Positions 581 to 15,343 of a DNA stretch of 64,000 nt are shown here, one piece after another; position 1 is the first letter of the stretch, and every line of letters starts with the position of its first letter. Under the pieces are notes generated by a model that saw only the letters and a list, made by a program, of their open reading frames with translations, ran no database searches and was not told the origin of the DNA. The position numbers were made by a program, and so were the translations under genes. The stretch covers positions 124,001 to 188,000 of the forward strand of contig NIVC01000282.1 in NCBI GenBank assembly GCA_002269645.1. The letters run 5' to 3'. Source of the DNA: Macrostomum lignano. Its lineage: Eukaryota.

Positions 581-3259
581 ATGGCGCGGCGCAATCCAAC
601 GGTACACAGAGACATCAAAGAAACGGTCGGTACTTTCTCGATGGAGAAAGATTTTAACACATTTGTCGACCATTTTGACCTGGTATGTAGGGAATACAAC
701 CTACAAAATCCAGAGAAGGCACAGCTGCTGCCACCTCTTCTCCAAGGTACTGCGCGAGAAATTTACGGCAAGCTGGATGCGGCAACACAGCAAAATTATC
801 CAGCACTAATCATTCAACTGCGCGCGCATTTCAACCGTTGCGGCACAAACAGATCAGTGCTGCTGCACAAGTTGCATAACAGAAGGATGCAAGCAACAGA
901 ATCCTTCCTCGCCTTTGTGGACGATATCCGCCAGATAATTAAGGCACTGCATCAGCCACCGCTGCAAGCTGCGGACCAACCACCACTGGGAGCGGCAGAA
1001 TTGGCCGCCAGAGAAAGACAACGATTGATGGATCGTGAACAAAACCTCATCCTGCACGTAATAAACAACGCACAGCCGTCACTTCGGGATAGACTTTTGC
1101 GTGAAAATATCGAAACCGAAGAAGACCTTTTGCGTTGCGGAATGCAATGGGAAGCCAGTGCCCCATTAATGACGACAGGCAACAATGAAGTGCAGAAACT
1201 GACGCAGCAACTAAACAAGTTAATGCAGCACCAGACAGCTGCTATCGCCGAACAAAAAAGACGAAATGAACAAGCCTCAGCCAGATGTTACTACTGCGGA
1301 CAAGAAGGACATTATCAGATTAATTGTCCTCATTGGTCAACAAGATACGACAAGCCGCGACAGATATTCAACAATCAGAAGCCGCAGAAACCATGGCAGC
1401 ACTATCAAAATCGCCAACAACAAGGAATGAGACGCTTCGGAAATGATAGACGCTTCGGAAATAATGACCGCTCCGGAAATGATGGCCGCTTCGGAAACGA
1501 AGGCCGCTTCAGAAGTAATGGCTACAGGCCACGCAACGTCAGATACACACAAAGACAGCCGACGCAAGCAATGCCACGATACGCGAATGCCATCACGTAC
1601 ACACCGGAAAATGAACAGCAAGAACAGCAAGTGTTCACAATTGACGACTTGGAAATGGACTTCACAGTCCCGGAACTTGACATCAGCTTGATCGAAAAGA
1701 AGACGACGCACGAGGACAACACTGACAACACAGAAGAGACGAATGAAACCGAAATGATCAAATTAAAAGAGACCACCGGAGACAGCAGAGAAAACAGGAA
1801 GAAAGTAAATCACAAGACAAGGGAGGAGGCGGAGAGCGACATCGGCAACGAAGAAAAGATGAAAACCGGCGAAGAAAACAACTATGAATCGACAACAGTG
1901 GATGACGACAAAACGAGCATGAAAGACAAAGAAATGAAAGAAGAAGAAGAATGTAGAAGTTACGGCAACGACCACGACTGCGAGGTGCGTGATGACACGA
2001 ACGACTACCAAGCCGAAAGAGGAATGCAGGAAGAACCGAGAGCGGAGAATCTAAGTTCCGACAGCGATCAAGGCTACGAAATACAATGGAAAGATGAAGA
2101 AATGGAAAAAGAACAGGTGAAAGAAAAGCCGAGTTCCGACAGCGACGAATGCTACGAGATCCGATACAAACGAAATGGTGAAGCCTATATTCAAACGGTC
2201 GACTACAAGACAGAGAAAAGATACCAAACGCAATGGAGTGAAACAACGGAAACATCGGAAGAAGCCGCAGACGAAGATAATGAAATAACCAAAAAGCAAA
2301 GCGAATCAGAAGCCTTCCGCCTGGATCAGCCAATGGAACAACCGAAAGAATATGATGCGGACATGGAAGATAACGAATGGCGATCGCAGCCAATGCCAGC
2401 AAGGACAACGGCAAAATCCAAGAAGTGGAAAAACTGGCTATTCTGGATCATCGTGATACTACTGATAGCAGTAGTCGCCAAAGCAACGGCAACGGAAAAG
2501 CCAATGATTTGTCCAACGGATGCGCATATCCAACCGATGATCTACAAGATACCAACCGACATCAAATGCAGTTACTTCAAGACAAACCAGACAAAACCAA
2601 AGAAGATTACACTCGATCTCTACAAGGCTAACATCAAGAAGCATCGACAACACGGGATAGTATGCTTCAGAGACAAGCACCTGGTGGAAAAAGTTTGGCG
2701 CGGACAATGGAACCGGATCCGATTTAAACAACATGAGCTACATGTGTCGCACGCGGAATGCCTACAATGGAATCAAACACTATTTTCAAAGGATGGTGAA
2801 CTGGAACCAGATGAGAAGGTCGGCAACGCACAGCTGTTCAGAACAAAGAATTCAGCCAACGGTCGATATATTCACTTCTTCGGAAAATGGAAAGAATATA
2901 TGGCACGCAACAGCTACTTGATCAGAAATATTCCATTCTACTACAATCCGTACGAGAAAATGGAATCGTTACAGCTGCAACTAAGCGAATGTCGATACAG
3001 TGAAGGATGGTGTCCAACGCCGATTCTACGGAAGGAAGAACTACACAGTCTACCACTGAGTCCAACATATCATCAAGACTATCGATGGCAGATTGAGCAC
3101 AGAGCACAATCACACTATGAGGAACCGTACAAATCACGACAATACTTCTTCGCGTGGAAGTTGAGCCGGAAATTGACTGCAAGCTTCAAAAGTATCACAC
3201 AGTTGAAGGAGGACTACTGTCAAATACGTTTTTGGCAAAGTCAGGAGACTTGGCACTGA
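581..3259 (+). CDS. gag: Gag (capsid-like N-terminus, zinc knuckle) + acidic linker + internal signal peptide + N-terminal half of Env-like glycoprotein
   Basis: 892-aa ORF; CYYCGQEGHYQINC (CX2CX4HX4C) at 1286-1327; hydrophobic WLFWIIVILLIAVVA at 2435-2479 followed by an A-T-A signal-peptidase-type site; Cys-patterned ectodomain afterwards. Confidence 0.9.
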   Translation: MARRNPTVHRDIKETVGTFSMEKDFNTFVDHFDLVCREYNLQNPEKAQLLPPLLQGTAREIYGKLDAATQQNYPALIIQLRAHFNRCGTNRSVLLHKLHNRRMQATESFLAFVDDIRQIIKALHQPPLQAADQPPLGAAELAARERQRLMDREQNLILHVINNAQPSLRDRLLRENIETEEDLLRCGMQWEASAPLMTTGNNEVQKLTQQLNKLMQHQTAAIAEQKRRNEQASARCYYCGQEGHYQINCPHWSTRYDKPRQIFNNQKPQKPWQHYQNRQQQGMRRFGNDRRFGNNDRSGNDGRFGNEGRFRSNGYRPRNVRYTQRQPTQAMPRYANAITYTPENEQQEQQVFTIDDLEMDFTVPELDISLIEKKTTHEDNTDNTEETNETEMIKLKETTGDSRENRKKVNHKTREEAESDIGNEEKMKTGEENNYESTTVDDDKTSMKDKEMKEEEECRSYGNDHDCEVRDDTNDYQAERGMQEEPRAENLSSDSDQGYEIQWKDEEMEKEQVKEKPSSDSDECYEIRYKRNGEAYIQTVDYKTEKRYQTQWSETTETSEEAADEDNEITKKQSESEAFRLDQPMEQPKEYDADMEDNEWRSQPMPARTTAKSKKWKNWLFWIIVILLIAVVAKATATEKPMICPTDAHIQPMIYKIPTDIKCSYFKTNQTKPKKITLDLYKANIKKHRQHGIVCFRDKHLVEKVWRGQWNRIRFKQHELHVSHAECLQWNQTLFSKDGELEPDEKVGNAQLFRTKNSANGRYIHFFGKWKEYMARNSYLIRNIPFYYNPYEKMESLQLQLSECRYSEGWCPTPILRKEELHSLPLSPTYHQDYRWQIEHRAQSHYEEPYKSRQYFFAWKLSRKLTASFKSITQLKEDYCQIRFWQSQETWH

Positions 3260-6200
3260 CGTTTCAAAAGAAACCAGTCGAGCAAAAACTGAAATGCAAG
3301 GATACAGACAAGACACTATTCATCTCGGAACAAGAGATACCAGTCTACGTAAAGGATGAAGACAAACAAACCTTCTTGGCAATCATCAATGGAACGTATC
3401 AGCAACAAGAAAAACAGAATAGAAGACGACGTGACATCGAACGTCCCAAACTGGTGTCAAACCGGCTGTTGTCAGCAAAGATAACGGCTTTGGATCACAA
3501 TCTACACAACCAGTTAAACCACTTGCATCGAACACTGGTCCAGCTAACTTGCAAAATGCACGCAATCAACTTAAATTATGCCAGACAAAACTACTATGTC
3601 AACCCTACGATGACTTTTCGTAAAATCACCGGAATGACGAACGTTTTGGCAGTTCCAATATACGAGCATCTGTTGATATACAAGTGCACGCCGATACAGC
3701 ACTTTAACATCTTGCCGTCAAACACGTCAACAACCTGCTACGATAAGCCAAGGATTGAAGCGTTCTACGAAGGAAAACGAATTCAGGGATTCTTGGACAC
3801 GGTACACAACATCATCGTTGGCACCGCAATACCGAGACCTTGCACCACGGCAGTAAACTACTATCAACTGGACAATGCACTACACGTCATCAAAACAACT
3901 GGAACGACAGCAAACGTCACAGAACCGGAAGTAATCGTCGACGAAAACTACGACATGGAGGATTTGAAAATCCGATTCAACAGAACGAAGTATACGCCAT
4001 TCGCCGATATCCAACTTGACGAGATAACACCAGGATGGACGATCAACGACTTCTTGCAAGCGTTCATCACCCAACGCAAGATGATTCACCAGCTGTTCAC
4101 AAGAAAGGACAAAGGAACCGGGACAGGAAGATTTCCCGTCCTTGTTTCAATGGACAGCGCCATCAAATCATTTTGGACAAATAGCTTCTGGGAGCTGCTC
4201 AATGGAAGAGGCAGTCTCTATCAAGGATTCATCTTCTACGGTGCTTGCATTGTGTGGATTGTCACGGCAATCTTCATCATTTCATCGATCGTACGGTGCT
4301 TCAGTCAAACTTGTCCAAGAGCTAAGAAGACAGTGAATGCCATAATGCAAAGAACGACAACGGAAAGCGACAACAGTTTAGAACTAACAGAAACTGCACA
4401 TTGTGAGGTTCAAGGGCAACCGACACTAGCAACGCGGCTATATCCATCGATTCCGACAACACCAACGGCACCAAGGATACAACCACCCAACTATCAAGCA
4501 GAACAGCACGAGCCAAAATGGCCGGAAAACTACGTCTGTACGCTACACGCCGAGATTGGCAAAGCAATGGCTCAGGTCATTGTCAACAACTTGCCATGTC
4601 GAGCACTACTGGATTCAGGCAGCTCGATCACAGTCATCTCGCAACAATTATGCAACAAGCTACGACTCGCGGTACGACCAGCAGCAATCGCAGTTGCAGG
4701 AGCAGGAGGACATTCACTCAACATCCTAGGAAAAGCAGATATCGACTTGAAAATTGCTAATAAACAGCTGACGGTCCCGACGTACATCATCGACAGACTA
4801 CCAAACCAAGACGTCATCGTTGGAATCGACACGTTCAAGCAGCTTCAACTACCATTGACCTTCGACTTCAACAAGCAAACGTTTAGGATCGACACGGTGG
4901 AGCAACCGCTGATCAACCAGATTCGAGTACTACCGAAAGTAACTCTGCAGCAAGATGTCATTATCCAGCCTGAAAGCGCATGCTGGGTCAGAGCGAAAAC
5001 GACCAGCGCGGCAGATGAAGCAATGATATTTGATCCACACAGGAGAGTCACGGCAAAACATCAAATCATGATGCCTACGGCACTAGTGCTGGTTGCAAAG
5101 GATAAGCAACTGCCAGTACAAATCTTCAACCCGAACACAGAAACGGTTCATCTACGACAAGGAATGTGCATCGGTCATCTCAACACCCAAGCATCGGTTA
5201 TGCTGATTGAACAAGCGACTCCACGACTAACAGAGGAAGAATTTCAAAAGAAGATCAATTTGGATGACAGCCCGATTACGGAACAGCAAAAGAGGAAAGT
5301 TCGACAGCTGTTGTGGAAGTACAACGAAGCCTTCTGCCATCATGATTACGACATCGGACGAGCCAAGGACATCAAACAGGAAATCAAACTTCTGCCGCAC
5401 ACGGAACCAATTCAGTGCAAGCCGTACCCGATCGCCAAGCATCTGCAACAACACTTTGACGAAATCATCGATAAAATGCTAAAGCACGGCATCATCAGCA
5501 AAGCTATTTCGGCTTACTCCTCACCGTGCCTACTGGTACAGAAGAAGGAGACAAACGAAAGACGACTCGTATGCGACTTCAGACTGTTGAACAAGTACAT
5601 ACCGACGGATCAGCAAAGCCTACCGAAGATCTCCGAACTACTAGCAAAGCTCAACACGGCAAAATTGTTCACGGTGTTCGACCTACGTCATGGATTTTGG
5701 CAAATTGAAATCGAGAAAGAGTCACGACAGTACACGGCTTTCAAAACCTACAATGGACAAGTATACGAGTACAATCGATCGCCGATGGGACTTAGCAACA
5801 GCCCAGCAACGATGAGTCGACTAACAGCATACATGCTAGCAGGATGCACGAACCTGCTGCACTATGTCGACGACATTTTAGCCTACGGAGAGGATTTCGA
5901 GCGACTCTACGAAGCTACGGAGAAGGCCCTAGCGCTCATTCAACGCCAAGGTCTGAAGCTACAACCAACTAAATGCAAATTCTTCCGAGACAACGTGCGT
6001 TACCTGGGACATCAGGTGACAGCCAAAGGAATCTCACCGGACCCAGACAACGTGGAAAAGGTGAAGAAGTTTCCTACGCCAACCAGTATAACGAAGGTCC
6101 AATCATTCCTTGGACTTGCGCAATACTTCAGGAAGTTCTTACCTAACTTCGCAAAGACAGCAAAGCCACTGTACGACCTGCTCAAGTTCGACAAATGGAA

Positions 6201-8076
6201 GCAAGACAACTGGACACAGAGACAACAGGAAAGTTTCGACGAAATCAAACGACAGCTGACATCAGACGCACTGCTACAGCATCCGGACTTCGACAAGCCC
6301 TTCATCATCGAGACAGACGCCTCAGGAACGGGACTCGGAGCAGTCCTACTACAGGAAACCGAGGACAAGAAGGAACGACCTATTGCCTACGTCAGTCGAG
6401 CACTCAAACCAAATGAAACAAAGTGGTCAGCTACGGAACGAGAGCTACTAGGAGTCTTGTTCGCCCTGCGACAGTTTCATTACTACATCTATGGTTCTCC
6501 AATACAGACGATAGTACGCACGGATCATGCACCATTGACCTACGTCGTAACTACAAAAGGACAGACCAACAACCGACTCATCAGAATGACACTCAAGATC
6601 CAGGATTACAACTACAAACTCGTCTACAAACCAGGAATTACCAACAAAGCCGCGGACGCCCTGTCAAGAGCCTATGAAGTCAACGCCATTCATCCAATCC
6701 CTAACATCAAGGAGTTGGTGGATGAAACCGAGCGCGACAACTTCTACCAAGCGGTTAAAGACGACGACAAGAACATCAAACTCAGTCCCATGGAACGAAA
6801 ATTCCTACGCAAGCAACGACAACACCTAACAATCAATAAGTCACGGCTCTACTGGATGAGCGACAATAAACCCAAGATCTACATACCATATTCGTTTCGG
6901 CAAGCAATTCTCAACGAGCTACACGACAACCCACTCGCTGGACACCTGTCGGCAGCAAAGACCATCGCGAGAGTGGAACAATACTACTTTTGGCCAACTA
7001 TGTACGGCGACATCAAGCAGTATTGCAACAACTGCCATTCATGTGCTGCATCAAAGACAGGACGACGACAGAAACCGCAGCTACAGTCCATTCCGAAGTC
7101 GACTACAATGGACTGTCTAAGCATCGACATCACCGGACCGCTACCACCGAGCTGTCTCCAGGGCATCGCCTACACCTACATTCTAACCGCCTTGGATATC
7201 TTCTCGAAGTTTGCTATCGCCATACCGATACCGGACATCACAGCTCAGACAGTGGCAATGAGTTTCTTCAACGAAATCATTTGCAAGTACGGCACGCCGA
7301 AGAACCTCACATCGGACAACGGATCGCAGTTTACATCGCAACTGTTTCAGCAAGTCGTAAGGATTCTCAACATTACGCAGATCTACACATCGACCTACAA
7401 TCCGAAGGCAAACATGGTTGAACGGTTTCACCGCAACCTGCACGAGATGATTACACATTTCGCGCACCAACAGCCGGAAGACTGGATCATCTACCTGCAA
7501 TCTGTAACAATGGCCTACAACAGCGCTATTCATCGATCAACGGACAATACGCCATTCTTCCTAATGTTTGGACGAGACTTCCAACCGCCGAATCTGCTCG
7601 CACAGCAATTGCTACCATCGCAGTACGTGGAAGTACCGACTTCCATTCAGAAATTCGTCACGCAACTACACCTCGCATGGAAGATCGCCAAGCACAACAT
7701 TGACAACCAGGTGGCTCTGACCACCGGCAACGACGCGAGATCGACAACCCTGACGGCCGGCGACATCGTCTACCTACACTACCCGCCACAGCAGACGCAT
7801 AAACATGCACAGAAGTACAAAGGACCCTATCGAGTGGTCCAACTAACGTCACCAACAACGGCACGCCTGGCTAATGTACAAGATCCACATCAGCACCAGT
7901 TCTACGTACACATTCATCGACTAAAGAAGATCAACACTGACACAGCGACGTTTCTACCGACATTAGACAACGCTGATCGCACGCGTTCAACGAACCGCCA
8001 CATCGCGACGAAGCACGAGGAGACTCAAACGACAGATGTGAGCCAGCCACATGGCTACAACCTACGACCACGCTAG
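3154..8076 (+). CDS. pol: C-terminal half of Env-like glycoprotein (furin site, gB-like core, TM) fused in frame to Pol (PR, RT, RNase H, IN)
   Basis: 1640-aa ORF, frame open from 3121, no ATG start; RRRR at 3421-3432; TM at 4225-4293; protease Asp codon at 4612; YVDD at 5863-5874; IETDAS at ~6307; integrase H..H..CxxC, SIDITG, TSDNG, VERF; GPY motif; ends GYNLRPR. Confidence 0.93.
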   Translation: MEVEPEIDCKLQKYHTVEGGLLSNTFLAKSGDLALTFQKKPVEQKLKCKDTDKTLFISEQEIPVYVKDEDKQTFLAIINGTYQQQEKQNRRRRDIERPKLVSNRLLSAKITALDHNLHNQLNHLHRTLVQLTCKMHAINLNYARQNYYVNPTMTFRKITGMTNVLAVPIYEHLLIYKCTPIQHFNILPSNTSTTCYDKPRIEAFYEGKRIQGFLDTVHNIIVGTAIPRPCTTAVNYYQLDNALHVIKTTGTTANVTEPEVIVDENYDMEDLKIRFNRTKYTPFADIQLDEITPGWTINDFLQAFITQRKMIHQLFTRKDKGTGTGRFPVLVSMDSAIKSFWTNSFWELLNGRGSLYQGFIFYGACIVWIVTAIFIISSIVRCFSQTCPRAKKTVNAIMQRTTTESDNSLELTETAHCEVQGQPTLATRLYPSIPTTPTAPRIQPPNYQAEQHEPKWPENYVCTLHAEIGKAMAQVIVNNLPCRALLDSGSSITVISQQLCNKLRLAVRPAAIAVAGAGGHSLNILGKADIDLKIANKQLTVPTYIIDRLPNQDVIVGIDTFKQLQLPLTFDFNKQTFRIDTVEQPLINQIRVLPKVTLQQDVIIQPESACWVRAKTTSAADEAMIFDPHRRVTAKHQIMMPTALVLVAKDKQLPVQIFNPNTETVHLRQGMCIGHLNTQASVMLIEQATPRLTEEEFQKKINLDDSPITEQQKRKVRQLLWKYNEAFCHHDYDIGRAKDIKQEIKLLPHTEPIQCKPYPIAKHLQQHFDEIIDKMLKHGIISKAISAYSSPCLLVQKKETNERRLVCDFRLLNKYIPTDQQSLPKISELLAKLNTAKLFTVFDLRHGFWQIEIEKESRQYTAFKTYNGQVYEYNRSPMGLSNSPATMSRLTAYMLAGCTNLLHYVDDILAYGEDFERLYEATEKALALIQRQGLKLQPTKCKFFRDNVRYLGHQVTAKGISPDPDNVEKVKKFPTPTSITKVQSFLGLAQYFRKFLPNFAKTAKPLYDLLKFDKWKQDNWTQRQQESFDEIKRQLTSDALLQHPDFDKPFIIETDASGTGLGAVLLQETEDKKERPIAYVSRALKPNETKWSATERELLGVLFALRQFHYYIYGSPIQTIVRTDHAPLTYVVTTKGQTNNRLIRMTLKIQDYNYKLVYKPGITNKAADALSRAYEVNAIHPIPNIKELVDETERDNFYQAVKDDDKNIKLSPMERKFLRKQRQHLTINKSRLYWMSDNKPKIYIPYSFRQAILNELHDNPLAGHLSAAKTIARVEQYYFWPTMYGDIKQYCNNCHSCAASKTGRRQKPQLQSIPKSTTMDCLSIDITGPLPPSCLQGIAYTYILTALDIFSKFAIAIPIPDITAQTVAMSFFNEIICKYGTPKNLTSDNGSQFTSQLFQQVVRILNITQIYTSTYNPKANMVERFHRNLHEMITHFAHQQPEDWIIYLQSVTMAYNSAIHRSTDNTPFFLMFGRDFQPPNLLAQQLLPSQYVEVPTSIQKFVTQLHLAWKIAKHNIDNQVALTTGNDARSTTLTAGDIVYLHYPPQQTHKHAQKYKGPYRVVQLTSPTTARLANVQDPHQHQFYVHIHRLKKINTDTATFLPTLDNADRTRSTNRHIATKHEETQTTDVSQPHGYNLRPR

Positions 8077-8196: not shown

Positions 8197-8865
8197 ATGG
8201 GCAACGCACTGTCAAAACAGGCGCCCCAGCCTCAGCAGCTATATGACTGCCCGATATGTTTAACTGATGACTTGGCTGTCAAGCCACCGACTATTTGCAT
8301 CAATGGACATAAAGTTTGCGGACAATGTTTAAGTGATTCACACTATATTCAGCCCTGGCAGAGTTGTCCCCTCTGTAGAGATAGTTTGCGACAATGTGCC
8401 TATTGTTATTCTTGGCGCACGTTTCAATATTGTAACCACCAACATTTTATTTGCATGCACTGTTTGAAGCAAACCGCTAGTAGGGGCATTATAGGATGCC
8501 CCTTATGTAACAGTATGCCCCGCGAAAACACTTTTAAGAAATGGTGTCGGATTATACCTGACCCAGCGCGTTGTTTATCCGTTTACACTATGCACACCTT
8601 AACCGCTATGAGTATCGAACGGCGGCTGGAGTTTTGGCCTGTACCTCGCTTCGTTCAGCGGTCGCGACGACAGCTACTATTATATGCTCATAGAAATCAA
8701 GGATTTTTGCGTCATATGTCACCCTTGGAGATTGAGCGACGGTTGCGGCAGTTTTTGCATGACCACGAATCATTTCACTGGACGCTACACGTATACTGCC
8801 ACGCGCTTAAACGATTAGTGCTCTCACGTAGCTATTTTATTTGGCTTTTTAGGTCTCACCGATAG
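8197..8865 (+). CDS. Accessory ORF3 of the retroelement: double RING-like zinc-finger protein with N-myristoylation motif
   Basis: ATG at 8197 (track starts at TTG 8185); MGNALSK; CPIC..C..GH.VC..C..CPLC then CAYC..C.H.H..C..C..CPLC; lies between the pol stop and the PPT. Confidence 0.8.
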   Translation: MGNALSKQAPQPQQLYDCPICLTDDLAVKPPTICINGHKVCGQCLSDSHYIQPWQSCPLCRDSLRQCAYCYSWRTFQYCNHQHFICMHCLKQTASRGIIGCPLCNSMPRENTFKKWCRIIPDPARCLSVYTMHTLTAMSIERRLEFWPVPRFVQRSRRQLLLYAHRNQGFLRHMSPLEIERRLRQFLHDHESFHWTLHVYCHALKRLVLSRSYFIWLFRSHR

Positions 8866-8935
8866 AACATATGCTTGTTACGTATCTTGAATAATCCTCA
8901 ATCGTTCTAACTATACCTATACCTATCGCCCACAG

Positions 8936-9568
8936 ATGACCGAGATGGATACCTGCCCCTGCTGCCTCGAGGCACGGGAGCCGATGCTCCCGACTTGTGA
9001 ATGGGGGCACCAGGTGTGCTTCCCCTGCGACGAGCGGGCGCGAGAAATTGGCGACGTGACGATCCTTACCGCCTGCCCCGTCTGTCGCAGACCGCGGGTC
9101 CAATGTGCCCTTTGCGGCGACCAGCCCAATGTACGACTCTGTTCAAATCGGCATTGGGTGTGTTTCAGCTGTCTTCAGCGGTACGGTGCACGAGACATCA
9201 TGACGTGCACCGTGTGCCTGGCTCCGCTGTCCAACACAGCATCCGTACTACTGGCACCGATGCTCGCCGTACCGGAGCTAACGCTGGCGGAGCCGGATGA
9301 GCTAACCCTGGAACAGCTGGCCGTCGCCGTACGAACGTGGCCATGGCCGCTTCAGCATCAGGCCGACTGGCGGTGGTTACTAGACATCGCCAGGACTATG
9401 GTGCGTACAGCAGAACCGCTTACGACCATAGAGGCCTATCTGCTTTTGCTGGAGCGGACCGAGGATCCGCGATTCACTAAGTTTCAGTCGCTGTACTGGG
9501 CAGTGGCATCCCTGGTGGCGCGAACCACGCATCAGGTGAGCAGCCTGCTCAGGACAAGCTTCGGCTGA
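8936..9568 (+). CDS. Accessory ORF4 of the retroelement: double RING-like zinc-finger protein, paralogous to ORF3
   Basis: 210 aa; CPCC..C..GH.VC..C..CPVC then CALC..C..RH.VC..C..CTVC; Cys/His spacing nearly identical to ORF3. Confidence 0.8.
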   Translation: MTEMDTCPCCLEAREPMLPTCEWGHQVCFPCDERAREIGDVTILTACPVCRRPRVQCALCGDQPNVRLCSNRHWVCFSCLQRYGARDIMTCTVCLAPLSNTASVLLAPMLAVPELTLAEPDELTLEQLAVAVRTWPWPLQHQADWRWLLDIARTMVRTAEPLTTIEAYLLLLERTEDPRFTKFQSLYWAVASLVARTTHQVSSLLRTSFG

Positions 9569-9795
9569 ATGCCTCGGCAGCAGCGCGAGGACAGCAGGTA
9601 TCCCCGGCAGAAGACATGATTAACTTTAACTGAGCGTGGACTCAACACCACTAACCTTTATTAACACACAATGTATATTACGTGCATATATGTTAATAAA
9701 GAGAATTATGTAACCAATTTAAAGTTAAAGTATGGAATAATTCAATTACCCAAGATTTTTATTTCATTGTTAAAACTCGGGACGAGTTTTTTCGT

Positions 9796-9810: not shown

Positions 9811-10671
9811 TGTAGAGTGTTCTACCTCCCGTTAAAAAAGGAAAAAAGAAGATAATCGTATAATACTACTATAAGTAAGTAAGTACACGCATGTGCGCCT
9901 AAGCTTTGAATGAATCACGCTACCAGAAAAAGATGTTACCAGAATAATACGCCATGAGCCATTTTCCCCTTTTAGCGCAACACGTGAATTGTCATGATAC
10001 TATTTTGGATCAAAAACTTGTCTATAAATACAAGCGATCTGAAGCGGTACCGGAGCCATTCTCCCCACGGAAGAGGAGCGCTCCGAAGAGGAAGCCTTAG
10101 GAGGACTTCCTGATCTACCAAGTCAATCGAGACTCGGTCGAGTTGTTGCGGTAAGCCTTCCTTATTTGCGCCCGTTGTGTTAGAGACGTCTCGCTCAAGT
10201 CTATTGAGACTTGAGTCTAATTGAGTCTGTTGAGACTCTTGAGTCTGTTTAGACTCCATTGGTTGCAGTCTCCAGAAGGACTGCCCTTGATAGATCTTAG
10301 AGGACTATCAGTGGTTTCCGGAGCTATACCTAGAGTGCATAGAGGCACTGCTAGAAGAAGGAGGCTTAATTTAGACCGCAGTTTGGCGCAGGGTACCCAT
10401 TGTTGCTACGAGGCCTCTGATTGGTCCTGACGGAAGATACCGGCCGGAAGAACTTATCGGAAGTACAAGAGGAACCAGGACCAGAGCAACTGAAGAATCA
10501 AGGCGCCTGATCTACGAGATCTACTGACAAGTTCCTAGCGAGAACTACTCAAGAAATTCAAATCCGGATTAAAGGTAATTGAATACCTTCGTTTGACTTA
10601 CTGGGTTGCCTAGCTGTTGAGCTAGAAGTGATTGTTCCTTGATTATCGAAAGTCGGGTAATAAGGAACACA
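9811..10671 (+). repeat. 3' LTR (~861 bp)
   Basis: Starts TGTAGAG next to the PPT and ends ...GGAACACA where unrelated repeat sequence resumes; TATA at 10023; U5 hairpin at 10633-10669. The partner LTR is not in the window, so the right end is inferred. Confidence 0.75.
10023..10030 (+). promoter_or_regulatory. TATA box in LTR U3
   Basis: TATAAATA about 210 bp into the LTR. Confidence 0.6.
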
Positions 10672-10730
10672 TCAAAATGAGTGCCAGTGGCTCTAAAATG
10701 AGCGCTGACAACACCGATTCTGAAAATAAT
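10672..10730 (+). repeat. Fragment of the AAAATGAGTGCC-satellite-bearing dispersed element (target of the LTR insertion)
   Basis: AAAATGAGTGCC..AAAATGAGCGCTGACAA..GATTCTGAAAATAAT matches the array end at ~49495-49535. Confidence 0.7.
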
Positions 10731-10954: not shown

Positions 10955-11100
10955 AGGGGATTGTAACCTAGTGGCTGGAGCATCTGACTCACGACTTGAA
11001 GGTCGGGGAATCGATTCCCGATCCCACTTGGAACAATTGCGGCTTTAAGCAAGACTGTTCACACAGCTGTAAAATGGGTGCCAGCATTAGCTGGGGTAAT
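10955..11100 (+). mobile_element. Degenerate tRNA-derived SINE
   Basis: A-box-like TAACCTAGTGG and B-box-like GAATCGATTCCC, followed by the SINE-core-like CAGCTGTAAAATGGGTGCCAGC. Confidence 0.5.
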
Positions 11101-11174
11101 TGAGGGTGTGTGTGGTGGCGCCCCCCCCCCCTCCTTGGACTAAACTGCCTTCAGATGCGCCGCGCAATAGCTGC

Positions 11175-12172
11175 GGCATCTGCTTCCTTATTTTGGCATC
11201 TGCTTCCTTATTTTGGCATCTGCTTCCTTATTTTGGCATCTGCTTCCTTATTTTGGCATCTGCTTCCTTACTTTGGCATCTGCTTCCTTATTTTGGCATC
11301 TGCTTCCTTACTTTGGCATCTGCTTCCTTACTTTGGCATCTGCTTCCTTATTTTGGCATCTGCTTCCTTATTTTGGCATCTGCTTCCTTATTTTGGCATC
11401 TGCTTCCTTATTTTGGCATCTGCTTCCTTATTTTGGCATCTGCTTCCTTATTTTGGCATCTGCTTCCTTATTTTGGCATCTGCTTCCTTATTTTGGCATC
11501 TGCTTCCTTATTTTGGCATCTGCTTCCTTATTTTGGCATCTGCTTCCTTATTTTGGCATCTGCTTCCTTATTTTGGCATCTGCTTCCTTATTTTGGCATC
11601 TGCTTCCTTATTTTGGCATCTGCTTCCTTATTTTGGCATCTGCTTCCTTATTTTGGCATCTGCTTCCTTATTTTGGCATCTGCTTCCTTATTTTGGCATC
11701 TGCTTCCTTATTTTGGCATCTGCTTCCTTATTTTGGCATCTGCTTCCTTATTTTGGCATCTGCTTCCTTATTTTGGCATCTGCTTCCTTATTTTGGCATC
11801 TGCTTCCTTATTTTGGCATCTGCTTCCTTATTTTGGCATCTGCTTCCTTATTTTGGCATCTGCTTCCTTATTTTGGCATCTGCTTCCTTATTTTGGCATC
11901 TGCTTCCTTATTTTGGCATCTGCTTCCTTATTTTGGCATCTGCTTCCTTATTTTGGCATCTGCTTCCTTATTTTGGCATCTGCTTCCTTATTTTGGCATC
12001 TGCTTCCTTATTTTGGCATCTGCTTCCTTATTTTGGCATCTGCTTCCTTATTTTGGCATCTGCTTCCTTATTTTGGCATCTGCTTCCTTATTTTGGCATC
12101 TGCTTCCTTATTTTGGCATCTGCTTCCTTATTTTGGCATCTGCTTCCTTATTTTGGCATTTGCTTCCTCACT
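11175..12172. repeat. Minisatellite, 20-bp unit GGCATCTGCTTCCTTATTTT, ~50 near-identical copies
   Basis: Direct reading; explains the three overlapping repetitive ORFs. Confidence 0.98.
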
Positions 12173-12774
12173 TTGACAAGATCATATATGCACAAGATGG
12201 GGCCTCTCATTAACCACTTATGTGGCCACAGAAGCCAATGTGAAAAAAAATTGCAACTCGCGACAGCGCGAAAATCAACTACTGAACTTAAACTCAATTT
12301 CGTCAGTAGTCTCTGCAGTGCATGCATCATTCTTAGTTTGCTTGAGTAGCTTTTTATCTAATTCATTTGCTTGCATGTATCACATACAAAAATTCCGTTC
12401 CACTGAGATACCTGCGAAGGCTGTCCCTAATCGGATTATTTCATATCTGACAAAACGAGCGAGGTCAAACTTTCCCTATTGACAGTATGACATTGATGCA
12501 GAATGACATTTTCATCCAGTTTCCAATTTACCGTTTTATCAGGACGCAACACTCAATACGAAGTGAGACCTATCTAGGGAATCGTAAGATCTATGGATTG
12601 AACAAAGTTCTGATCTGACTCATAGGACACTTGTCTCCCGAATACTTCCAGAGCAATTCTCTTCCTCTTCATAACAACGATAGATTTCTTGGTAAATCTT
12701 AAGCCGTTTCTTAGTAAAGAAGTCAACTTTAGTTAAATTCGAAGACAGCTTGCTGCAGACCAGCGAAAATCGAC

Positions 12775-13388
12775 ACGGGTGAGTGTGTTTGGTGGATATC
12801 CAGCACCATTGACACGGGTGAGTGTGTTTGTTGGATATCCAGCACCATTGACACGGGTGAGTGTGTTTGGTGGATATCCAGCTCCATTGACACGGGTGTG
12901 TGTTATGTTTAGTGGATATCCAGCTCCATTGACACGGGTGTGTGTTATGTTTAGTGGATATCCAGCACCATTGACACGGGTGAGTGTGTTTGGTGGATAT
13001 CCAGCTCCATTGACACGGGTAAGTGTGTTTGGTGGATATCCAGCTCCATTGACACGGGTGAGTGTGTTATGTTTAGTGGATATCCAGCTCCATTGACACG
13101 GGTGAGTGTGTTTAGTGGATAACCAGCTCCATTGACACGGGTGAGTGTGTTTGGTGGATATCCAGCTCCATTGACACGGGTGAGTGTGTTTGGTGGGTGA
13201 GTGTGTTTGGTGGATATCCAGCTCCATTGACACGGGTGAGTGTGTTTGGTGGATATCCAGCTCCATTGACACGGGTGAGTGTGTTATGTTTAGTGGATAT
13301 CCAGCTCCATTGACACGGGTGAGTGTGTTATGTTTGGTGGATATCCAGCTCCATTGACACGGGTGAGTGTGTTTAGTGGATATCCAGC
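12775..13388. repeat. Minisatellite, 39/44-bp unit GACACGGGTGAGTGTGTTTGGTGGATATCCAGCTCCATT
   Basis: Direct reading, ~14 copies. Confidence 0.95.
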
Positions 13389-15343
13389 ACGATCGACACG
13401 AATCACCTCGACCCGGGAAAAAATCAGGAAGGAACTAGTTAACTGTAAAGCTACGAAGATTAGGCGAACGAATCGATAAAACACTTGCAGTGTTTCATTT
13501 CTTCTCTCTTTTACCTCTTCTCAATAATTTTTTCTATGGTAAAACGCGGAGGCTTGGCCCCCACCATACCCACAAAATTTCTTCTATAGCTACTATTTTT
13601 TTATATTTCACATAGAAATTTCCGGGTTGTATTTTTGCTACAAGTGTACATGTAGAACTTTAAGATGGATATACATACACTCGTAGCATAGAGCTAAGGA
13701 ATCTATGAGATTCTAATGAATTCTAATTTTGTAATCAAATAATCCAAACATGTATCTTATTTACCATGCACTTGTACAGCTAAACCAGAGTCTTTCTTTG
13801 GTCTGAAACCCAACTATTTTTGGCTTGACCTCGCCGACCTAACGGTGTATCTGCGGTCTCAATGAGCACAGACGCAAAAACCACCCTTCAAGCACGGTCG
13901 ACCAGGGCGCAGTTGATACTGAGCACTGTGAACATAACTTCCGCATCCAAAGAGCGTTTGTTGTTGTTGTTTGGTGCCAGCTGGTACCAGCGCGGATCAG
14001 CCCTGAGATAGTGATGGGTCCTCCAGGAGCTTAAAGCTCGGGCCACACCTCAAAGTTGGATCCCTTTGTCGGGAATCGGGCGCTTTCAAAGGCGTCGGAA
14101 CCCTTGTGGAGTTTGGCTGTCCTAAATGCGAAGCTTAATTTTTTTCAAGGCAGGGTCGAACGTGGGCGGGCACACAGAAGCCCAGTGAGATCGATTGCTT
14201 CTGCTCCCATAAACAAGTGAGCTACCAACATCTGGAGCACAAGCCTTCCAGGTGGTCCATTTACATAAAGTTACACAAAATACCCTCCGGATCGAGTGTA
14301 CCAAATAAACTAACTAACTAAATAAGTAATACGGCGCCTCAGCCATTGAGCAGGCTCTTACGCCACTAGAGAAATATATGAGTTCCAGATAGGGAGTGTA
14401 CTTATGTGACAGCGGTTCGACGAACCAGTCAGGAGCCCGTGCCCAAAACCAGGTTAGATAGACCCTTTAGCCTATTAGGGATGGCCCGAAGGCCTAGAGC
14501 CGTGGCAACCATGCTGGGGCCGACCGCCCACCACCCCCGGGTACAAATCACAAACCTCCCCGGGGCCAGAGGGGGTTGAGTGAACCAATCAGGGGAGCCC
14601 GTGCCTTCTCCAGGGTTAGATAAGCCAAAAACCGGTCAATTGACCGCCCCCACGGCCGTGGCAACCCGAAGGAGCCTCCCCCCCCAACTAAACCCCGGGT
14701 ACTCTTGCCAGACAGTCTCTTATCTTTGAAGCGGCAGGAGGGCTATTCGCCGGGACTATTTCACCCTTTGCTTCGCCAACCCGCCATTTCTATAGTGACC
14801 GTGCCAACGGTCTCGTCCTGCTCAGACTCAGTCCTGGTTCTGGCACACTCCAGCTTTAATAGGGTCGCTGGCTGTACGCTCAGAGGGCGCCTGAGGGAGA
14901 CCGTCAGAACACCTTGGTACAGGTATAGGCCTGCCTTCCTATACAGCTACCCACAGCCCTTCCCGATCCACTATTACCCTCCAACCCAGCCTACTCACTC
15001 ATTACAAGCTTTCAGCCAGGCAGAGACAAGTTTCACAGGAGTGACTGCGGTTAGGCGTCTCTATGCGAGACAAAACCAAATAAACAATCATAAGAGACTT
15101 ATACAATCCAGTATCCAGCAAAGCGTCTAATCTAACCTACTGACAAACATTTCTCCGAGCTAAAACTACTAACAGTAGCATAAAAACAAACCGCTGATTA
15201 CAGCTTCTCACAGTGAAATAAATGAATCAAAGTAAAAAAATAATTTTTAACTGATTATGCGGCCAAATTCAGTTGATAGTGTATATTGATTTATTAGTTT
15301 CAGAGGGAATGTCACCAAACACCGAGTTAAATTTAGAGACAGT

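Follow-up and report, generated by a model that had tools for sequence, protein, structure and literature searches.

The Env cytoplasmic tail of a Macrostomum lignano retroelement carries a block of late-domain motifs that, judged from sequence comparison, is a real and selected feature. This holds strongly for two of the motifs, P[TS]AP and [LIM]YPx[LI], and for the third, PPxY, in the family of this element only. The tail probably serves as a membrane-tethered late domain, bounded by probable protease sites, that would recruit ESCRT for particle release.

Structure and identity of the element

The element was found in a window of 64,000 nucleotides (the whole stretch of DNA analysed here), and all features described below lie on the + strand. 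It is an LTR retroelement of the Ty3/gypsy type with the gene order GAG-ENV-POL. The 3' LTR (9811..10674, TG...CA) and the 5' LTR, situated outside the window on its upstream side (L061 from 3001), form an identical pair of 864 bp; a primer-binding site is present and the target duplication measures 4 bp. Pfam matches followed one another along the element in the order zinc knuckle, weak viral fusion glycoprotein (PF24664), protease, reverse transcriptase, RNase H and integrase. Gag (581..1600) comprises a capsid-like region and one CCHC zinc knuckle at about 1286-1333 (PF00098). Its N-terminus reads MARR, with no N-terminal glycine, and the Gag linkers held no late motif, the sole match (YPAL) being inside the capsid-like region. 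A very long acidic linker of about 260 residues (1620-2400) runs from the nucleocapsid to the first hydrophobic segment (2438..2494, hydropathy 2.41), an internal signal/anchor that starts Env within the Gag frame. The Env ectodomain (2495..4224) is of the gB type (class III) and has a furin-like RRRR at 3421-3432. It matched PF24664 with an E value of 4.8e-6, which is under the curated cut-off, and the 36 Foldseek matches listed for a low-confidence model of the post-furin part (pLDDT 53) were all herpesvirus gB, with a best E value of 7.7e-7. The transmembrane helix (4225..4281, Kyte-Doolittle 2.43) precedes the tail, and the protease, reverse transcriptase, RNase H and integrase (4516..8076) are in frame with that tail. 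The protease probably starts at VCTL (4534) and has the motif LLDSG at 4606-4620, and the reverse transcriptase shows YVDD at 5863.

In the window copy itself, a frame break interrupts the N-terminal half of env, where the frames overlap at 3121-3259. Since 11 of the 81 matches listed lay in open frames of at least 2,450 codons, the native product appears to be a single Gag-Env-Pol polyprotein with two hydrophobic segments. The identical LTRs, together with 14 of the 40 listed DNA matches at 100% identity, indicate that the family is recent. Host single-copy genes were found three times in the genome assembly, so element copy counts are inflated. The nearest database protein, 99% identical, was named Macrostomum lignano, and when the Env-protease region and the ectodomain alignment were each used in word-index searches for homologues, only the element's own record came back. 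The supplement of PMC13524379 lists 16 copies of Mlig_errantivirus_2, a matching element of the same species, gene order, Env type (ENV_HSV), LTR length (864) and primer-binding 12-mer; by that listing, the element itself is already known. Contigs from four public sequencing runs showed no joint within gag-env-pol, and those of three runs bridged the membrane segment, tail and protease. Rare forms are lost from contigs, and whether the runs are RNA was a guess, so these data are uninformative on splicing or expression.

The motif block in the window copy

The frame 3121-8076 reads LYPSIPTTPTAPRIQPPNY at 4438-4494, and translation thus confirmed the three motifs exactly where the original prediction had located them. 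LYPSI (4438..4452) is an ALIX-type YPxL/I motif, PTAP (4462..4473) is an exact consensus TSG101-type motif, and PPNY (4483..4494) is an exact consensus PPxY (WW-domain) motif that, at this place, is specific to the window element's family. The block spans 19 codons, in frame with the upstream hydrophobic segment (4225-4281) and the downstream LLDSG. Both frame and hydropathy agree with its predicted location between the Env membrane anchor and the protease. Two hydrophobic segments precede the block, which shares the frame of the protease and, on hydropathy, would be cytosolic. LYPSI departs from the YPxnL consensus in having I for the last L. YPSI, about 53 residues past the membrane segment, also meets the Y-x-x-hydrophobic pattern of a YxxPhi signal.

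When the 96-residue tail was shuffled 20,000 times, the three motif types never occurred jointly; in 200,000 shuffles restricted to the proline-rich stretch of 40 residues that contains the block, they did so at a rate of 5e-5. The single-motif shuffle rates were 0.016 for P[TS]AP, 0.031 for YPx[LI] and 0.028 for PPxY. Throughout the six frames of the window, P[TS]AP fell within 40 residues of YPx[LI] only at this block. These shuffle figures are post hoc, so we tested conservation, with retention in independent families as the real test.

Conservation within the family

The within-family count covered 69 loci, representing 43 haplotypes. [LM]YPxI was present in all 69. P[TS]AP was present in 67, the exceptions being one PPAP and one aligner gap whose translation still reads PTAP. 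PPxY was found in 66, the other three loci being gaps, and was hence kept in every readable copy. The replacements shared within the block were L to M before YP, I to M between the motifs, and N, T or G at the free position of PPxY. Among the family copies, the motif block had 12 synonymous and 4 replacement changes, versus 14 and 21 in the upstream linker (Fisher p 0.034). The residues between the motifs were also conserved, and within-family conservation alone therefore fails to single out the motifs. One database protein of the family (P0003) lacks the motif block. Six loci (L082-L087) share a frame break in the tail directly before the motifs, a pattern suggestive of a defective sub-lineage multiplied through copying or duplication.

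Comparison of Env tails among host families

Env-bearing families of the host were sought with the Env-protease query, the Pfam fusion model and the ectodomain alone. Ten families had a readable tail, seven of which were found with the ectodomain alone, that is, without tail sequence in the query. Three loci with internal deletions and no tail-protease junction (L193, L195 and L197, of which L195 also lacks PSAP) were left out of the family table, as was L196, which belongs to the window element's family. The ten families form four lineages with ectodomain identities of 21-33% between them. The tail linkers are about 19-39% alike between lineages, and the flanks are not alignable while the motifs persist.

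The window element's family has LYPSI, PTAP and PPNY in its tail. Families B and B2 have PTAP then IYPKI, family C PSAP then IYPTI, family D PPAP then LYPKI, family J PSAP then LYPTI, and family F PSAP then LYPTL; families G and H have PSAP, and family E has no motif. Compared with composition-keeping shuffles, P[TS]AP was found in 8 of the 10 tails where 0.26 were expected, and [LIM]YPx[LI] in 7 of 10 where 0.06 were expected. Each of these two was present in three of the four deep lineages. PPxY, found in one tail with 0.50 expected, showed no enrichment. A prior-free search over all patterns of three to four residues in the host tails ranked P.AP (9 of 10 tails), PSAP, PS.P and YP.I at the top. 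The motif order in the window element's family is the reverse of that in the others, and the gap between P[TS]AP and YPx[LI] varies from 4 to 21 residues. Such changed order and variable spacing are expected of position-independent L domains, as these are described in the available text of PMC7995964. Within family B, one of six copies reads PNAP, and the lineage L100/L101 has no motif in either tail or Gag.

The proposal that three motif types would hardly coincide by chance stands for P[TS]AP and YPx[LI], which are far beyond chance across families, and is weaker for PPxY, which between host families is at chance level. Likewise, when conservation was set against the flanking linker, P[TS]AP and [LIM]YPx[LI] persisted across lineages and PPxY (1 of 10) did not exceed chance. 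As a family-wide claim, the conservation of three motif types in the tail was rejected, as only two are conserved. LYPSI had been described as only a YPxL-like variant. It does have I for the last L, yet the ALIX-type motif ends in isoleucine (YPxI) in six of the seven host tails that have it, so that the isoleucine form is the family norm and better supported than that description implied.

All ten host tails contain a YxxPhi pattern, with 4.3 expected. PPxY was also seen outside the tail: the Gag-side linker before the signal anchor holds it in families B (three copies) and B2 (two copies), a finding that is only suggestive, the chance of a Gag-side PPxY in family B being 0.12. The form is PPPY or PPAY in the Gag-side linker of sister families whose tails lack PPxY (L127, L212 and L215, at codon 590 of the long frame; L211 and L213). 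A WP dipeptide directly before the protease (window 4516-4524) was seen in nine of the ten host Env families and in many other tails.

Wider tails and env-less controls

A search of 1.84 billion representatives gave 335 hits, and the best 150 of these supplied a wider set of 47 further membrane-to-protease tails. Twelve protein ids were left out of this census (nine from the host, one duplicate, one mis-placed tail and one empty), and six of the 47 tails were defined by the membrane segment alone. The Env profile was iterated on the same proteins that it classified, which inflates its E-values; with the tail masked in the query, all 47 proteins still passed. A motif was present in 16 of the 47 tails versus 2.6 expected, with P[TS]AP in 5 (0.34 expected), PPxY in 8 (0.89) and YPx[LI] in 6 (1.46). 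The tails had 19 matches in 4,680 residues, compared with 21 in 59,150 for the remainder of the same proteins. Named examples include PPAY in Caenorhabditis tropicalis and PSAP in Ostertagia ostertagi. Most of the wider tails lack a named source, making their independence from M. lignano uncertain. The 31 motif-free tails, like the motif-free L100/L101 lineage, show that the motifs are not universal.

The env-less control in the host comprised 30 of 50 protease loci, in 11 families; of the 20 loci left out, 3 had no frame resembling an element upstream and 17 nearly duplicated families already in the set. Across the 30 loci, read in three frames over 450 nt, none of the 11 families had a motif ahead of the protease, and the same was true of 16 env-less database proteins. 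Widening the span to 1,500 nt gave a single scattered match in each of 8 of the 30 loci. Of the env-less families, the two closest in reverse transcriptase had neither P[TS]AP nor YPx[LI] before the protease. One of them has PPPY about 60 residues before the end of Gag, in low-complexity sequence, which shows that the motifs are not exclusive to Env carriers. This family consists of six loci (L199, L200 and L204-L207) and has a non-standard zinc knuckle.

Candidate host partners

The M. lignano genome encodes a TSG101 UEV domain and an ALIX with both Bro1 and V domains. Aligned to the human structure, the host TSG101 keeps T58, Y68, N69, M95, P139 and V141 and has a histidine at human Y63, and the host ALIX keeps F676; we take these residues to belong to the binding pockets. 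HECT ligases, counted as a class, are numerous in the host.

Putative protease sites around the tail

Words of the form [VIA]N[AT][IVL] occur three times in the two frames, at 1583, 4333 and 6679, the last at the RNase H/integrase junction. Words of this type are presumably Ty3/gypsy polyprotein protease sites. ANAI (1583..1594), after the nucleocapsid region, and VNAI (4333..4344), 17 codons past the membrane segment, are both probable sites for the element's protease, and VNAI recurs at 6679. Two VNAI in the long frame had a shuffle rate of 1e-4, a post hoc figure. Among the family copies the VNAI of the tail showed synonymous changes with unchanged residues, and a similar hydrophobic-x-x-hydrophobic word lies at its place in other families. 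If the VNAI words are protease sites, the element protease could release the motifs on a piece of about 67 residues.

Proposed mechanism and alternative explanations

We propose that particle release runs through the Env tail. Two membrane segments in one polyprotein would leave Gag, before the first, and the tail and Pol, after the second, on the cytosolic side, with the gB ectodomain luminal. Gag, which has neither a matrix-type N-terminus nor a late motif of its own, would depend on the Env signal anchor for its attachment to the membrane, and Pol would be packaged through the Env tail. P[TS]AP would then bind the UEV domain of TSG101 and [LIM]YPx[IL] the V domain of ALIX, while PPxY, in the window element's family, would bind a Nedd4-type ligase. 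Together the motifs would recruit ESCRT-III/VPS4, which would sever the neck of the particle as it buds. After release, cuts at VNAI and at the protease start might free the motif piece of about 67 residues and leave a short Env tail, a step that we put forward tentatively. The tail piece would accordingly be p6-like while tethered and R-peptide-like when removed, and its removal by the protease may also arm the fusogen.

The same interactions could serve another end, with the motifs binding TSG101 and ALIX but sorting the Env-anchored polyprotein into multivesicular bodies instead of cutting a neck at the plasma membrane. Such sorting could provide an assembly site, release of the exosome type or the turnover of excess Env. 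The motif conservation data fit this too, and parallels appear in the available text of three sources: a YPX3L in the membrane protein PAR1 is bound by ALIX for endosomal sorting (PMC3558412), the HSV gB tail directs traffic through multivesicular bodies (PMC7995964), and ZAM particles use an endosome/exosome route (PMC3383448). Nevertheless, two to three motif types clustered directly before a protease is the layout of a retroviral L domain. Moreover, with capsid and enzymes on the same chain, sorting into intraluminal vesicles would itself be ESCRT budding. We regard such sorting as an unlikely account of the block. YPSI, YPKI and YPTI might instead be YxxPhi signals for Env endocytosis or trans-Golgi sorting, P[TS]AP serving some other proline-binding partner. 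YxxPhi signals are common in viral glycoprotein tails, according to the available part of PMC5217368, and every host tail has one. A YxxPhi signal needs neither a proline after the tyrosine nor a preceding L, I or M, and both were kept in all seven tails and all 69 loci. It also leaves P[TS]AP in 8 of the 10 tails unexplained. The YxxPhi and ALIX-type roles of the tyrosine motif can overlap, and we consider the former, as the whole explanation, quite improbable.

Two further explanations dispense with a function for Env. The block could be what remains of the original spacer between Gag and protease, a p6-like relic dating from the entry of env between gag and pol and kept for polyprotein processing or by descent. 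Its location directly before the protease and between probable cleavage sites is what such a relic would show, and some sister families have motifs in the Gag-side linker, with PPPY there in one env-less family. In contrast, neither P[TS]AP nor YPx[LI] precedes the protease in any of the 11 env-less host families or in the 2 nearest by reverse transcriptase, and in Env carriers the motifs persist and swap order where flanking residues cannot be aligned. This makes the relic very improbable. Chance matches in a proline-rich, disordered linker would be easier to credit for short motifs, since the tails are proline-rich, and PPxY alone is indeed at chance level. The 8 and 7 tails observed against 0.26 and 0.06 expected, and the recurrence of enrichment in the 47 further tails, already contradict chance for two of the three motifs, and we give it hardly any credence for the block as a whole.

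Relation to known systems

If the tail is a late domain that recruits ESCRT, it would have several counterparts. In the available text of PMC7995964 and PMC3558412, PT/SAP binds TSG101, YPXnL binds ALIX and PPxY binds Nedd4-like ligases, and L domains act independently of position. HIV-1 p6, with PTAP and YPXnL, and Ebola virus, with PTAPPEY, carry the same motif types in clustered, order-independent form, and in retroviral p6 the late motifs lie directly before the protease (same sources, as far as available). The LYPSI and PPNY of the element resemble the LYPSL and PPxY of RSV Gag, where LYPSL is known from the title of a reference. Unlike those of retroviral Gag, the element's motifs are on the Env tail/Pol leader and tied to a membrane anchor, and isoleucine is the usual last residue of their ALIX-type motif. 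Bluetongue virus NS3 is also a membrane glycoprotein, with cytosolic PSAP and PPRY, that drives egress (PMC7409164, in its available text). NS3, however, is non-structural, belongs to a non-enveloped virus, is not the fusogen and has no capsid or enzymes joined to it. Drosophila gypsy and ZAM are Env-bearing Ty3/gypsy elements with non-myristoylated Gag, as here, but have the order gag-pol-env and an F-type Env. In 2012, PMC3383448 (available text) mentioned an EIAV-like sorting motif in the Gag of gypsy and called ESCRT use unknown.

Chary and Hayashi (PMC13524379, available text) recorded the GAG-ENV-POL order with an HSV/gB-type Env in flatworms, bryozoans and nematodes, and their Discussion calls the transmission route of these elements elusive. 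None of the terms late domain, ESCRT, PTAP, budding and cytoplasmic appears in the main text of that source, as available. The late motifs of the tail are thus the addition made here to an already catalogued element. Our literature search found no report of Env-tail late motifs in env-bearing Ty3/gypsy elements, subscription journals being mostly outside it, and no paper on an isoleucine variant of YPxL. Nematode GAG-ENV-POL elements are reportedly the subject of Sacco et al. 2022, which may bear on novelty.

Particle exit by env-bearing Ty3/gypsy elements outside Drosophila is an open question, going by the available text of PMC13524379 and PMC3383448. Conservation of Env bears only on entry, whereas late motifs under selection give sequence-level evidence of exit and identify the host factors. 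The young, multi-copy family in M. lignano, a laboratory flatworm, makes the exit question directly testable. If our reading is correct, the element would add a case of a late domain on a fusion protein tail instead of Gag or matrix. It is possible, though we hold it with some reserve, that late motifs were gained, swapped and reordered repeatedly, with the tail of a twice-anchored polyprotein with a gB fusogen replacing matrix and p6. With similar reserve, we suggest that flatworm and nematode GAG-ENV-POL elements may share an assembly plan, not described for retroelements, in which capsid and enzymes are at the two ends of a gB fusogen. On that view the elements would be infectious, ESCRT-budding particles whose budding is driven by Env.

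Other features of the window

Two accessory ORFs follow pol. The first (8197..8865) has RING-like cysteine clusters (PF13639, E 2e-4, under the cut-off), and its start, MGNALSK, resembles what we take to be a myristoylation start. The second RING-like ORF (8936..9568) is missing from some copies. Both have counterparts in family B, where the start of the first lacks this resemblance. As putative element-encoded ubiquitin ligases, they could bear on ESCRT recruitment or host defence. In a variant seen in the public-run contigs, 8519-9761, including the second RING ORF, is swapped for about 180 other bases. The insertion site of the element lies on the border of a 20-bp satellite array (L061 2610-3000; window 10675-10710). 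Further downstream, two tandem-repeat arrays (11100-13434) give long spurious open frames, and an ORF at 33045-33803 matches PCO_ADO (PF07847, cysteine/cysteamine dioxygenase family) with an E value of 1.9e-45.
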